Position numbers: made by a program. A stretch of DNA of 64,000 nucleotides from Arcobacteraceae bacterium (GTDB taxonomy: Bacteria; Campylobacterota; Campylobacteria; Campylobacterales; Arcobacteraceae): assembly GCA_048268245.1 (NCBI GenBank), contig JBLWVX010000001.1, positions 128,001 through 192,000 on the forward strand. Reading direction: 5' to 3'. Numbering within the stretch: the stretch's first letter is position 1; each line of letters begins with the position of its first letter. Shown piece by piece: positions 21,001-27,000 of the stretch.

Positions 21001-24000
21001 TGGTGTTAAAACCATAGATATTACAATAGTAACAATTAACACTTGAGAATATGTAGGATCTATTAAATCTTTACTTCTTGCAAGTTCTAAGATTGCAAGT
21101 GAAAACTCACCAATTTGAATTAAAGATAATGCTGTTTTAAATGCAACTCTTTTATTATCTTCAAACTTTACAATTGTATAAATAATTGCATACTTTACTC
21201 CCATTAAAAGAGGAAGTAAAAGAAGAATTATCCAAATATACTCAGCAATAACTGTAAAGTTAATTTGCATACCAACTGTAATAAAGAATACACCTAATAA
21301 AATATTTCTAAATGGTATTAAATCAGCTTCAACTTGATGTTTAAATTTTGTCTCACTAATCATCATACCTGCAACAAATGCCCCAAGAGAATATGTAAAC
21401 CCAAAATAGTGAGCCATATAAGATGAACCAATTGCAAGTAAAAGTACTGAACCTACAAAAAGTTCATCAGTTTTAGTTTTAGAAACAATTGTTAAGAATG
21501 GTTCAAGTAAATACTTTCCTGAAACATAAAGTAATGTTAATAAAATAAACGCAGCAACTAATGTCTCAAATATCATATAACCTACACTTTTATCATCTCC
21601 CATAGTAAAGAAAGAAATCATTAAAAGAATAGGAATTACAGCGATATCTTGCATAATTAAAATACCTAAAACTCTTCTACCATGAGGTCTATTTATTTCT
21701 TTTGTTTCATTAAAAGTTTTAAGTACAATGGCTGTTGAGGACAAGGCAAGTGCAGCACCTATAATAACAGATGTTTCAGTTGGAAGTCCAATTGCAAAAT
21801 AACATACTAAAAATACAAAGGTAGCAGTAACTAAAATTTGTAAACTACCTGTTACAAATACTTCCCTTTTCATCTTTTTTAGATGCTCTATGGAAAACTC
21901 TAATCCAATAGTAAACATTAAAAAAACAACACCAAATTCAGCTATTTCTTTTAATGTATAGTTATTTACAGCATCATGTAATTCAAAAGCATATGCTATA
22001 ATTGTTCCTGTAAAAATATACCCAATAATAGTAGGTAAGTGAAACTTTTTTAGGATTAAATTTACAATTAATGCAATTGCAATTGTTGAGACAATAATCC
22101 CTAACATCAATATTCTCCTTTATTTATAGTGCATCTGCTTATAGCCTTCAAGCCTTTTTTTGTAAGCAGAGTTTAGCATGGGGTTTTTTGAATCTAAAAA
22201 ATCAATAGCTAAACACTCTTGATTTCCTCGACCAATTCTTCCTAAATATTGGACAAGTCTACCATAATATGAAATTGGTGTAGCAAACATTATCGTATTT
22301 AGGTGAGGAAAATCTATTCCCTCTCCAAAATAAGAAGTTGTTGCTAAAATTAAAGATGATTCTCTAACCTTATTCATATTTTCAACTTGCTCTTTTTTAT
22401 TCATACTTCCATGAATACTCACATACTCTATTTTTTCTTCAAATAAAAGATTTTCCAAAATATTTATATGCTCAATTCTATCTGTTAGAATTAAAATCTT
22501 TCTAGATATATTATCTTTTATTTGCTGAATTATTAAGTTATTTCTAGCTTCATCAATACAAAGTTCATTAATTATAGTTGCATAATTATCAGCTTCACTT
22601 GTAAATTCAGTTCTTATTATCTTTAGCTTATTAGTATGAGTTCTTTTCTTTTTATACTCATATGCAACTTCACCTAATTGTTGAAATAAAATAGGTTGTA
22701 ATCCATCTTTTCTATTTGGAGTTGCACTTAAACCTAGAATATATTTTCCCTTGAAATTTTTAATAATTTGCTCAAAAGTAACTGCTGGAATATGATGGCA
22801 TTCATCAACTATCACAAAAGAGTATTTGTTGATAATCTCAGGAGCATTTTTTAAACTTTGCATTGTTGCAATATCAATTATTCCATTTAATTTATTTTTT
22901 CCTTTACCTAAGTAACCTACATCTTTTTTATTGTAATCAAAGTAATCAACAAATCTTTCAATCCACTGGTTTAAAAGCATATTTTTATTTACAACTATCA
23001 TTGTACTAACAGCTCTTTGTTCAAACATCTTAGCACCAATCAATGTTTTCCCAAAACCAGGAGGAGCTACACAAATAGAAAAATCTGTTTTTAAAATCTG
23101 TTTTATTGCTTCATCTTGTTCAGGTCTTAAAGTAAATTTCACTTTTTTTGTATGTATTTGCTCAAAGTGTCTTTTATCATCAATGGTAAACTTAACACCA
23201 TTTTCATTAAAAAAATCACATACTTTTGTTTTAAGCCCTCTTGGAAGCATAAGATGATTCTCATCTTCTTCAAAACCTTGAATAACCCTTGGAGTATTAT
23301 ATAAGGGCTTTCTAAGACTTAATAAGACTTTGATTTGAGGGTTCTCAAAAGAAGCAAAGGATTTAAGCTTATTTATTAATGACTTTGATAAATTTGCAGT
23401 TGGAATATAAATAAAATCAAATAAAACCATCTCTATCATATCAAGTGGAAAATCAATATTTCCAAAATCTTTTTCATCATTTGCAGAACTGCTTACTTGA
23501 GAAAACTTATAAATAGTCTCTTTATTTATTTTTGAGACATTATTTAAAACCATCCATTGGTCTTCATAAATCTTATTTGTATTAGTATCAATAAAAACAG
23601 TTTTATTCTTTTTTCTATAATTTAAATGTAGTGGTAACTCTATACTATTTCCAAGACTAGCTTTTGTAGCAAACTCTTTATTTGGATAAAGTTTTGCAGA
23701 AATATTTGCTTTTTTCATTACAAACTTACCAAAATTGTGTACTATTTTAGAACTAACTGGCTCCTCAAAAAAAATCCATGCAATTAAACTATTATAAGAG
23801 TTCAACTCATAATATGCTCTAATATTTAAAGAGTTTAAAGCAATTTGCAATTTAAATTTATCTTCATCAAGTATTTCAAAAGCTATAAATTTTGAATTAT
23901 TATTTGAGTCAATACAATAAGTTGCTAAGTGAACTAAACCTCTTAAATGTGACTCTATGTCATGATTTGTAATAGGAAGGAAATCTTCCCCTTTGAAAGT

Positions 24001-27000
24001 TTGAGTTACAGGATAAAAGCCTTGTTTATTTCCATCTTTACTAATCCATTTTTTTGCATAAATATCACTTCTTGCAAGAAATAGAGATTTAAAAATCTCT
24101 ATCTTTTCATCTTTTGTAAAGTTTTTCTTTAACTTAGCTTCTTCTTGTATTTGAAACTCTAAGGCTTTAATCTCCTCTTCTATTTGTTTCTTTTGAGAAT
24201 AAAGTGCTTCTAGTTTTATCTTAAGATTTTTCATGAGCAATTGCGGATGGACCAACTACAATATTATTGATTTTTTGTTCAATCTCATTATATCTACTTT
24301 TTAGCTCAGAATTTTTTCGAATTCCTCTTCCTTCAAATTTTCCCTTAGGGTCAATTATAAGTTCGTTATATCGCATTTCACCTATAACTCTACCCTCTTC
24401 TAAAATCTGAACTTCATTACAATCAATTTTACCATCAAAAAGGCCATTTACTACTAGATTATTAGCTTTTATATCGCCAATAACCTCACCTTCTGTTCCA
24501 ATTGATATAACATCAGCTTCTAAAATAACACCTTCAAACTTTCCATCAATATGTACAGTACCTTTTGTACTAATACCACCTATTATACAAGTGCCTGCAG
24601 CAACTACTGTTGCTCCATTTGATGTTGATCTCTTATTAGACTTATTAAAGACTCCCATTGCACTCTCCTCTCATTTTTAAAGATGTAATCATAATTGTTT
24701 AAGTTCCATTTGATAAACTTTTTCGGATTTAAAACTTTGTTCGCATATCTTACTTCATAGTGTAAGTGAGGTCCCGAACTTCGACCTGAGTTTCCACTAA
24801 GACCAACAATTTCACCTTTTTTTACAACTTGACCTACTTTAACCATAGTTTTATTTAAATGAGCAAATACCGTTTTAAAGCCAAAGTTATGACTTATTCT
24901 AATAACTCTACCATAAGAGCCTATATTTCTTGATTGTACATATTCTATAACACCATCAGCAGTAGCTCTAACTGGTGTTTTTTTATTTGCTGGTATATCT
25001 AAACCTCTATGAAATTGCCTTTTTTTAGTTATTGGATGAATTCGATAACCAAAACCCGAAGAAGTTGTAATTTTATCTAAAGGTTTTCCATTTGGAATAA
25101 CTCTTAAAGTATATCTTTTTTTATTGATATTCATAGCTTCAAGAGTTTTTTTAGTAATCTCTTCTGTTGTAGCATCTTTATCAACACCAATGATAGTATG
25201 AATTTCATCAAGTTTTGAACTTAACTCATCAATATCTTTTATTTTACTTTTTATTTGCATTGAATAAAATTTATTTTGAGCTACTAGTTTTTCCTCTTTT
25301 TGAATTAAAACTTTTAATTCATTTTCTTTATCTTTTCTAACTTCATCTACTTCATTGCTCAAATAAGATATAAAAGCAAAACTTCCTGCAATTATAACTA
25401 ACACACCTATAATAACAAATAAAAGTATTTTCTTTATAAACTGATGTAAATTATAGGACTTTGTACCTTTTATATCTGAAACAGTAATTATTAATCTATT
25501 TTTCATTAAAACCAATCATTGATAAAAATTTCTCTACAACTAAGAAAGAACCAAATACTAAATACTCTTCATTATCGTTTATTTCTATATTCGGAATAAT
25601 TATTATATTTAAATCTTTTATAATTTTCAATAAGTTATTTTTTTCGACCATTCTATTATCATCAATATCTATTATAATTATTTTTTTAATTATAGGTTTT
25701 AAAATTTTTAAAACTTCTTCATAATCTTTATCAGCATAAGAATTATAGATTAAAGTGATTTTTTTATTTTTAAACTCTTCTTTTATAACCCTAGCTGCAA
25801 GGGGATTATGACCAACATCAACTGTAATATTTGAAGCTACTTTTTGACATCTCCCAAAAAGTTTCACATCATCAAATAAAGATAAATCAATATCTATTTG
25901 TAACTCTTCTAAACACTTTATAACTAAATGTAAATTTCTTTTTAAATATGATGCGAAGCTCTCTTTTAAATTATATTTGTTGAATTCTTCAACAAACTCT
26001 ATAGTTATATCTTTATTTCTTTCATCTTTTATTTGCTTTTTAACTTCAAAAGCGCTTTGTTTTACACTATCATGAATTTGATAACCAACTAGCATTTTAG
26101 TATCAACTGAACGCATTTTTGTAATAGCTATTTTCTCAACAGTATTACCTAAAAAACTTTGATGGTCTAAATCAATAGTAGTAATCAAAGATAAATCATT
26201 TGGCACTACATTTGTAGCATCAAACTCTCCTCCAAGTCCAGCTTCTAATACTAAATAATCCATATCTTTTGATAGATAAATAGCAAGTAATGTTGTATAT
26301 TCAAAATAAGTAAGTTTTGAAAGCAGTTCTAAATCATATATTTCTTGTAAAAACCTATGAGCTTTAGTTAGTTCTTTATCACTTACATCACTTCCATTTA
26401 TCCAAATTCGCTCATTAAACTTTATGATATGAGGTGAGCTGTAATGTAGTGTTTTATAATTCTTTTTGTATAGATAGTGAGATAAAAACCTTCCTGTACT
26501 TCCTTTTCCATTTGTTCCTACAATATGTATTACAAAAGGAAGTTTTATTTTTTGGCTTAAAATATCCCAAGAAGTTTTTACTGTACTAAAATCAATTTTG
26601 TCATAATAAAGAGTTTTGTATTTCAAAAACTCTTCAAGGTTAGCTTTTTTTAAATCTGTAGTCATAAAAACTACTTATCAAAAGAGTGTACTGCTAACTT
26701 TGATAAAAACTCATCTAAAGCATCATTTGCAGCACTTTTAATAGCTTCAAATCTTTTTGTATCTGTAATAGTTGTACCATCATCAATAGAGAAGTTATGT
26801 TCCCCTTCTAAAGAAATGTTTTTTACTTGTTCATTTACTTTATTGTATTGAATATTAAGTGTAACAAGGGCTCTATAAAGCTTGTTGTACCCTTCTTTAT
26901 CATACTGTAACTCTTGCATATTAACTGAACCAATTTTTATTTTCATAATAGTATCAGCTAAAGCTTCATCATAAACTAAATTTGTATTTAACTTTTGAAG

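Follow-up and report, generated by a model that had tools for sequence, protein, structure and literature searches.

A primase-dead SF2 helicase gene at a fixed locus of Arcobacteraceae, a family lacking RecG

The locus and its distribution

The window analysed is a stretch of 64,000 nucleotides from an Arcobacteraceae genome (assembly GCA_048268245.1, contig JBLWVX010000001.1, positions 128,001 to 192,000) and its relevant features are listed in Table 1. The gene under study (P0001) may alternatively start at an upstream TTG, giving 711 residues, and the model predicted for the shorter form has a mean pLDDT of 89.8. The genes named folC, leuS and kefC are presumed to be such from their sequences and Pfam hits. 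A terminator-like hairpin was identified at 20490-20459, beyond the KefC-like gene, and a promoter scan stayed at chance level (57 vs 54 ± 8). The operon neighbours are housekeeping genes, with no cas1, cas2 or array beside the gene. No RNA run contained half of the gene's words; most of the gene is spanned by a relative's contigs in one seawater RNA library, contigs being unable to show transcription.

Table 1. Features of the locus, in positions of the window
Feature	Position	Strand	Remarks
Pseudo-primase / SF2 helicase fusion gene (P0001)	22120..24234	(-)	704 aa from ATG
N-terminal helix, residues 2-34	24133..24234	(-)	coiled-coil-like, fast evolving
AEP (Prim-Pol) fold, residues 38-253	23476..24123	(-)	CAPP 7nqd fold match; dead by motif yet conserved
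Eroded motif I, residues 116-125	23860..23889	(-)	Glu120 at first Asp, Leu122 at second, Asp123 adjoining
Lost motif II, residues 143-153	23776..23808	(-)	Ile151 replaces His, glycines gone
Lost motif III, residues 179-184	23683..23700	(-)	Ala180/Lys181, not acidic; ~9-residue deletion precedes
UvsW-N-terminal / XPB-DRD-like domain, residues 264-362	23149..23445	(-)	conserved basic-aromatic loop
RecA-like domain 1	22645..23148	(-)	Walker A, DECH, SAT
RecA-like domain 2	22123..22644	(-)	motif VI Q-x-x-G-R-x-x-R
Bactofilin gene	24221..24658	(-)	stop overlaps helicase start by 14 nt
M23 peptidase gene	24604..25515	(-)	
folC-like gene	25496..26665	(-)	Mur ligase domains
lptE and leuS	26671..29679	(-)	upstream part of same-strand gene run; LptE by domain hit
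KefC-like cation/proton antiporter gene	20494..22110	(-)	with TrkA_N; directly downstream of helicase gene
mfd (TRCF)	2904..5891	(-)	intact, 16 kb downstream of helicase gene, same strand

A match at E<=1e-40 was identified in 162 of the 184 family genomes (135 of the 152 high-quality ones), this number being the 173 genomes found at 1e-10 minus 11 with matches weaker than 1e-40. The other 22 genomes have no strong match, and the absence is clean, at an intact locus, in G053, G119, G124, G125, G140 and G110. Among 72 core loci the gene follows bactofilin in 43 and folC in 22, lies elsewhere in 4 (all of genus g7) and is cut off by a contig or region end in 3; the fixed slot is kept in 65 of the 69 readable loci. 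The earlier note had described a single-copy core gene, syntenic behind folC-M23-bactofilin, fusing an AEP-TOTE domain to an SF2 helicase and absent from other families. The fusion is a real gene, its domains being recognised both by Pfam and by fold, and the synteny stands, while the core status is tempered by the 22 genomes. The gene is not always single-copy, since intact mobile second copies (L032-L036) are present in some family genomes, nor is it confined to the family: 4 of 24 other families include genomes with a match at E<=1e-40 (12 of 351 genomes), these being mobile copies, and the 12 loci read from 11 of those genomes are all away from the core slot. No earlier description of the gene as core in Arcobacter was found in the literature searched.

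The primase domain and its mobile relatives

The Pfam model AEP-TOTE (PF22548) matches residues 43-243 with E 1e-51 and 176 bits against a cut-off of 27, and the predicted model aligns with CAPP 7nqd over 195 residues (Z 24.2, rmsd 2.2). The catalytic motifs of AEP proteins are defined, in passages of PMC5862659 and PMC10345425, as hhhDhD/E (I), sxH (II) and hD/E (III). Of the 56 full-length core copies, from 15 genera, none has any of the corresponding patterns hDhD/E, S-x-S-G-x-G-x-H and [YF]-D-R. None of the 120 closest homologs has Asp at the second Asp position of motif I (Ala in 65, Leu in 54, Thr in one) or His at the His position of motif II; the candidate positions of motif III are Ala180 in 116 (Gly in 3, Ser in one) and Lys181 in 116 (Arg in 2, Phe in 2), and the residues listed for either include neither Asp nor Glu. 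A His near motif II, two residues before a Trp, is retained in three of the 56 core copies. All three motifs are complete in 16 of 16 mobile copies.

The claim that the primase motifs are dead and the helicase motifs kept thus holds for the closest homologs (0 vs 120 of 120), as does the claim that homologs outside the core cluster mostly retain the former: among representatives with the site covered, motif I is present in 121 of 133, motif II in 122 of 132 and motif III in 131 of 138. The statement that the motifs are lost throughout the family passes over the fact that the domain itself remains under purifying selection in most genera (omega ~0.10) and is entirely absent from three, g7, g8 and g13, which have a helicase of about 475 residues. 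A single origin of this helicase-only form is weakly supported (84/67 in one tree and 83/75 in another).

The core copies form one clade (100/100), sister to the intact mobile copies (93/88 in one tree, 99/96 in another). The mobile form is about 45% identical and was identified on six Arcobacteraceae plasmids; neighbours of mobile copies include AbiE, AAA_14/DUF4143, Fic, HipA, YafQ, GmrSD, type I R-M and integrase genes. Since the sister clade on plasmids and in defence islands is intact (16/16), the evidence supports the domestication of a mobile form from conflict islands that became fixed among housekeeping genes, and the gene is very probably a domesticated primase-dead helicase. The earlier idea of a conflict-system protein turned housekeeping gene therefore survives in substance, not in its label: TOTE is here the name of a Pfam domain only, because the TPR, OB/CSD and TBP partner genes were not seen, either in the core operon or (as TPR-OB/CSD or TBP genes) among the 30 selected mobile-locus neighbours scanned. 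The whole AEP-TOTE and SF2 fusion family comprises 1,225 representatives at E<=1e-30.

The helicase half and the absence of RecG

The helicase half has Pfam hits to ResIII, DEAD and Helicase_C. The Walker A K/T and D-E-x-H are present in all 120 closest homologs and motif VI in 39 of 39 core rows, and the SAT motif was read in P0001. The basic-aromatic loop is formed by Arg308-Lys309, Tyr/Phe312 and Arg/Lys316, Arg308 being found in 30 of 30 core and 10 of 10 helicase-only copies; the latter retain the UvsW-like N-terminal domain. In profile comparisons the protein matches T5-type D10 (E 2e-35), T4 UvsW (E 7e-21, aligned from residue 284 with the N-terminal loop included) and RecG (E 5e-8, RecA domains only), so it is no RecG ortholog. 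It scores 23 bits against 718 with the RecG model NF008168 and lacks the wedge domain, and it falls well below the cut-offs for bacterial XPB (NF045503, 67 vs 610 bits) and RadD (NF053632, 55 vs 720).

Residues 264-704 of the model span the full chains of archaeal XPBII 6p4o (373 residues aligned, Z 26.1, rmsd 7.5) and of UvsW 2oca (410 residues aligned, Z 22.1, rmsd 17.4), so that for the whole model XPB outranks UvsW. The middle domain is colinear in these whole-model alignments and in the profile alignments. The best fold match of the middle domain alone is UvsW 1rif (92 of 109 residues aligned, rmsd 4.5) at Z 6.8, a middling score in the range that the fold-search tool calls common, and the XPB DRD follows with Z 5.3 and 53-54 aligned. 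By sequence profile the middle domain alone has a negligible match to UvsW (probability 4%) and no significant match among PDB sequences. The half as a whole is classed, from the profiles and the model, as a predicted UvsW/D10/XPB-type SF2 helicase. Thirty diverse core copies share 45% identity in the AEP domain vs 73% in RecA-like domain 1, and the 16 mobile copies 65% vs 63%; helicase omega is ~0.09. In core copies constraint has moved toward the helicase.

RecG was identified in 0 of the 184 family genomes vs 341 of the 351 other genomes of the order (E<=1e-70). The query was an order-type RecG (L153), itself over the NF008169 cut-off, with which orthologs reach 1e-171 to 1e-201 and Mfd 1e-40 to 1e-47. 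TIGR00643 at E<=1e-125 also gave 0 of 184, but order-type RecG scores 1e-109 to 1e-128, for which this threshold is too strict; the result excludes high-scoring canonical RecG only, the L153 search being the valid test. RecG was found in 10 of 10 bacterial control genomes, in 8 of them over the cut-off. All 15 outside loci, chosen by recG, have recG directly behind a gene of about 430 residues; in the present genome another gene follows the 430-residue one after 2 bp, in mid-contig and with no recG there, and recG does not follow it in any of 14 family genomes from 14 genera. No mention of RecG absence in Arcobacter was found, although subscription papers or supplements may note it; passages of PMC3325230 on recG concern H. 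pylori mutants.

Mfd is present in this genome and in 175 of the 184 family genomes, RuvB in 4 of 4 and RuvC, RadA and RNase H in 3 of 3 family genomes tested, and PriA and UvrB in this genome. The loss of RecG is not part of a general decay of repair, since Mfd, RuvB, RuvC, RadA and PriA are still present where looked for. RecQ was found in this genome and in 3 of 6 tested relatives; it could share RecG's load, and at that frequency it was rejected as a family-wide substitute. The slot of the helicase gene differs from that of recG. In other families it is mfd that follows bactofilin, in 16 of 17 loci from 17 families (loci chosen by mfd). In Arcobacteraceae mfd has been displaced from this slot and not replaced; the helicase as a substitute for Mfd was rejected, mfd being so widely present.

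RecG and the core helicase are mutually exclusive in the genomes searched, an anticorrelation that counts as n=1 because gain and loss together are one event on one branch. The 22 family genomes without a strong helicase match also lack RecG, and G053, with its clean gap, is 100% complete. In addition, RecG is missing from G193 of family f11 (97% complete, 210 contigs), both from the usual slot and from the rest of the genome, and G193 does not have such a helicase; no support was obtained for placing f11 as sister of Arcobacteraceae. RecG can thus be lost without this substitute, RuvABC and RadA being there as back-up.

A proposed role, its rivals and the known systems

A family of 184 genomes without a protein that nearly all other genomes of the order searched retain raises the question of what rescues its forks, and the helicase class together with this absence gives the gene a testable function. 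The favoured reading, with a probability of about 0.55, is that the family, on its stem, captured a helicase able to remodel forks, which displaced RecG and took a RecG-like role. A mobile primase-helicase with intact primase would have inserted behind folC-M23-bactofilin, pushing mfd away from bactofilin, and recG would have been lost on the same branch, the order of gain and loss being conjectural. The primase domain, with its catalytic residues lost, would persist in a non-catalytic role, probably binding DNA or acting as a scaffold; three genera have deleted it. The protein may be an ATP-driven SF2 translocase with helicase activity, using its UvsW-like N-terminal domain to bind branched DNA, and it most likely would regress stalled forks, migrate Holliday junctions and clear D- and R-loops in RecG's stead. 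UvsW is described, in a passage of PMC3778716, as a functional analogue of RecG that complements some recG null defects, and a passage of PMC5180179 presents D10 as a protein of branch migration, with XPB and UvsW as the nearest of its characterised homologs. A fuller version is offered tentatively: RecG would have been swapped for a captured UvsW-type helicase with every stage still alive (intact donor, dead-primase core, trimmed domain, deleted domain, lost gene), and the dead fold would be a metal-independent module for binding fork DNA.

An XPB-like translocase, opening DNA for excision repair or working with transcription while recG was lost by coincidence, would account for the best solved-structure matches (archaeal XPBII, E 1e-26, Z 26), for the insertion beside mfd's old slot and for the genomes lacking both helicase and RecG. 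It is considered unlikely: the NCBIfam XPB score is far too low, the middle domain has a UvsW-type insertion (the 92 vs 53-54 aligned residues), no Bax1-like nuclease gene lies in the operon, UvrB and Mfd are intact and adjacency to mfd is not kept. An ancestral defence gene fixed in the chromosome and still acting against phages or plasmids is quite improbable. Its sister copies do lie in defence islands (AbiE, Fic, HipA, R-M) and on plasmids, the gene was lost several times, and 7 full-domain representatives outside the core also have an eroded primase; against this, the slot is fixed, the gene tree groups most genera, helicase omega is low, there is no nuclease or partner gene, the PLD tails of 4 of 23 outside proteins scanned are absent here and PADLOC yields either weak hits or hits to CRISPR PrimPol alone. 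A part in another recombination step, either on incoming DNA in natural transformation (as ComFA) or in RadD-like break repair, is more improbable again; weak RadD similarity (E 3e-15, Z 20.9) and a near-core yet dispensable distribution speak for it, the RadD score below cut-off and the lack of competence genes among the helicase gene's neighbours against it. An active primase with a shifted E-x-x-D metal site is scarcely credible, for although 116 and 119 of the 120 close homologs retain Glu120 and Asp123 respectively, which an HMM of intact domains can align to D-x-D with one insertion, and the AEP omega is low, E-x-x-D occurs in just 33 of 56 core copies (motif I being eroded, not blank), motifs II and III are gone, three genera have deleted the domain and mutation of both motif I Asp abolishes CAPP activity according to a passage of PMC8211822.

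The gene is a named, testable candidate for RecG's missing job in Arcobacteraceae. If displacement of RecG is correct, an enzyme of the phage UvsW/D10 class, brought in by a mobile element, has taken the place of a core repair helicase to which it is not orthologous, and a widespread, uncharacterised fusion family would gain a first functional handle. Should the link to RecG fail, the succession of intact mobile copy, pseudo-enzyme and deleted domain would still be a clean example of domestication that comes with natural controls.

Among known systems, RecG shares with the protein the proposed role only (fork regression and branch migration), whereas homology is confined to the RecA domains and wedge and locus differ. 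TOTE conflict systems (TPR, OB, TBP, Effector), defined by TPR, OB/CSD and TBP genes in a passage of a citing preprint (10.1101/2025.09.15.676423), share the PF22548 match over cut-off but not the partner genes, unseen at the core locus and among the mobile neighbours scanned. The CAPP_A CAPP-helicase and its non-CRISPR mobile homologs, in which CAPP-helicase is the commonest architecture (PMC8211822), likewise have a CAPP fold followed by a helicase, a likeness of architecture; here the catalytic motifs are lost, no cas genes lie nearby and the chromosomal slot is fixed. Archaeal XPBII and XPB-Rad25 share the whole-chain fold, DRD included, and differ in that the present protein has a longer UvsW-type N-terminal domain, no Bax1 partner seen and a score far below the bacterial XPB cut-off. 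T4 UvsW and T5 D10 are about 22% identical to the protein, and the present gene is chromosomal, near-core and bacterial, with an extra dead AEP domain and a predicted activity; 883 phage records match its helicase half (21-28% identity among the matches listed), and with UvsW and D10 it shares the domain order of a small N-terminal alpha/beta domain, the basic-aromatic loop and two RecA domains.

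Gene, fold and helicase class

The gene encodes a pseudo-primase/helicase. Among homologs that carry a name, the nearest come from Arcobacter, Malaciobacter, Poseidonibacter and Aliarcobacter, by which we take the family to be Arcobacteraceae. It lies in the same-strand run leuS-lptE-folC-M23-bactofilin-helicase-kefC, overlaps the bactofilin stop by 14 nt and has the same GC as its flanks (27%). Pfam identified AEP-TOTE at residues 43-243, plus SF2 helicase domains. The predicted structure (pLDDT 89.8, alignment of 73 sequences) comprises an N-terminal helix, the CAPP Prim-Pol fold at residues 38-253 (Z 24.2, rmsd 2.2) and, from residue 264 to the C-terminal end, an entire XPBII/UvsW-like chain (Z 26.1 and 22.1, respectively).

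The top fold match of the helicase part was XPB, and the middle domain alone was nearest to the UvsW N-terminal domain, with a middling score (Z 6.8). Profile comparison gave E-values of 2e-35 for T5-type D10, 7e-21 for T4 UvsW (N-terminal loop included) and 5e-8 for RecG. In the accessible text of PMC5180179, D10 is a branch-migration protein with XPB and UvsW as nearest characterised homologs; UvsW complements some recG-null defects, according to the portions available of PMC3778716 and, similarly, PMC12746101. Further SF2 proteins of this genome were a RadD/EcoAI-like protein (934 aa), a Cas3 and two of 580 and 865 aa having no NCBIfam match at E<=1e-20.

Two other ORFs were identified in the window. 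The 413-aa ORF is low in GC, with a weak pentapeptide-repeat match, a hydrophobic C-terminus and no PADLOC match. The 1254-aa ORF is lipoprotein-like, adjoins metal-transport-type genes and presumably resembles two fused beta-propeller phosphatase-type domains.

Coordinates of the gene, the recG slot and other loci (G000, this genome; G126, another genome; C, contig; L, locus read)
Feature	Location	Strand	Type
Pseudo-primase/helicase gene, 704 aa	window 22120-24234	-	ORF
lptE-folC interval	window 26665-26671		
413-aa ORF	window 30693-31934	-	ORF
1254-aa ORF	window 11421-15185	-	ORF
Other SF2 locus (L146)	G000:C2, about 173000-176000		
Other SF2 locus (L150)	G000:C7		
Other SF2 locus (L144)	G000:C16		
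Other SF2 locus (L147)	G000:C13		
Conserved recG slot without recG	G000:C6:14545-17108; L162-L191		
1606-aa frame with partial RecQ match	G126:C1:1937727-1938779		open frame

Loss and retention of the primase domain

AEP catalysis requires motifs I, II and III (PMC5862659 and PMC10345425, in the parts available), and CAPP was inactivated by mutation of the two Asp of motif I (PMC8211822, likewise). Aligned to CAPP, the 704-aa protein has Glu-Ile-Leu in place of D-x-D in motif I; its motif II lacks the His, and its motif III any acidic residue. None of the three patterns was found in the 56 full-length core copies, those at the chromosomal slot, from 15 genera; all three occur in 16/16 mobile copies. 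The primase of the core copies is dead by motif. The earlier note, which had primase motifs lost and helicase motifs kept, agrees with this and with the intact Walker A and DExH of 120/120 close homologs, although remnants persist: E-x-x-D in 33/56 core copies and the motif II His in 3/56.

Since seven full-domain representatives from outside also lack motifs I and II (the fusions P0179, P0182, P0191, P0198, P0199, P0235 and P0239, one cluster being named Clostridium sp.), erosion is not confined to Arcobacteraceae, and inactivation is recurrent.

The dead domain is retained in core copies, though loosely. Median omega (Nei-Gojobori, whole-gene dS) in 18 core pairs, which share ancestry, was 0.10 (0.05-0.38) for AEP and 0.09 (0.04-0.16) for the helicase, and the median AEP/helicase dN ratio was 1.43 in core pairs and 0.95 in the 7 mobile pairs compared. 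Conservation is seen in the hydrophobic core and at residues near the N-terminus, among them Lys44, Trp63, Lys70 and His96-Leu-Arg-Gly. As Prim-Pols bind template metal-free through N-terminal motifs (PMC10345425, accessible part), a DNA-binding role is plausible by analogy. The domain is trimmed in genus g22 (protein of 647 aa) and absent from the helicases of about 475 aa in genera g7, g8 and g13, abutting bactofilin in the last. The middle domain is present in all 10 helicase-only forms aligned, so the selected part is the helicase together with it.

Origin and distribution

The core copies formed one clade (100/100) in both helicase-half trees, one of 86 rows (built without 16 loci that were truncated or near-duplicates and without 135 of the 150 representatives) and one of 31 rows under a mixture model, with the intact mobile clade as sister (93/88 and 99/96, respectively). 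In other families mfd directly follows folC/M23/bactofilin in 16/17 loci, hence the helicase gene is an insertion at the bactofilin-mfd junction. Arcobacteraceae are one clade in the Mfd tree (100/100), and g22, their deepest though weakly supported genus (90/72), carries the helicase in its usual slot. The simplest history is a gain on the family stem followed by losses. The M23-bactofilin pair, which we take to be cell-shape-type genes, is absent in 22/72 core loci, where the helicase directly follows folC (L010, L014-L017, L019, L021-L031, L065-L069). Most other-family loci (L102-L118) have a gene of about 500 aa between lptE and folC, absent from the family loci read.

Matches at E<=1e-40 were identified in 162/184 family genomes (135/152 of high quality). 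The single-copy, syntenic core gene of the earlier note stands broadly, with the exception of five second copies inside the family and six genomes where it is cleanly missing from an otherwise intact locus; restriction to the family (0 of 16 others) fell, 12/351 outside genomes matching. Internal stops in two core copies (G092:C9 and G097:C195, from genome search) could be assembly errors. The off-slot copies, the five second ones and 12 loci read from 11 outside genomes, usually neighbour AbiE, AAA_14/DUF4143, Fic, HipA, YafQ, GmrSD, R-M or integrase genes. Six Arcobacteraceae plasmids bear the mobile form, and frameshifts occur in several of the mobile copies (L082, L084, L086, L087). The intact mobile copy (L032-L035, L073, L074, L084, L086, L194) repeatedly adjoins the gene of an AbiEii toxin and a partner of 212 aa, a small module that different families share. 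The partners that define TOTE (TPR-CSD and TBP; 10.1101/2025.09.15.676423, available part) were not found among the core and mobile-locus neighbours scanned.

Absence of RecG and proposed role

In this genome (99.3% complete) RecG models and order-type RecG proteins both found Mfd as best match, and the RecG N-terminal part gave none. A confirmed order-type RecG query matched 0/184 family genomes against 341/351 others of the order; G188, one of the ten outside misses, has two partial matches at contig ends and may carry a split RecG. Outside the family recG follows a gene of about 430 aa, presumably M16-peptidase-like, in 15/15 loci. In this genome and 14/14 family genomes that gene is followed by one other than recG, in 10 of the 14 what we take to be a gltX-like gene. 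Mfd, RuvB, RuvC, RadA, RNase H, PriA and UvrB are retained where tested in the family. The 1606-aa frame of G126 stands alongside a normal RecQ.

The protein may be a monomeric ATP-driven translocase that would grip branched DNA through a basic-aromatic loop and remodel forks and junctions in RecG's place, a reading to which we give a probability of about 0.55. It is limited by the single coincidence, on one branch, of helicase gain and recG loss, and by the genomes with neither gene: 22 in the family and G193, two small ones among them also lacking RecQ. In G193 (family f11; 210 contigs; L114, L189), RecG was found neither at the slot nor by an HMM search, and a helicase of this kind is missing too. 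XPB as top fold match is a further limit and favours XPB-like repair, itself unlikely. A defence gene that became fixed, as the neighbours of the mobile relatives might suggest, is less probable, and another recombination role slightly less again. Residual primase activity is very improbable given the motifs.

Neither this domestication nor a family-wide lack of RecG was found reported in the literature searched (without subscription papers and supplements). The parts and processes, domestication and non-orthologous displacement, are of already known kinds.
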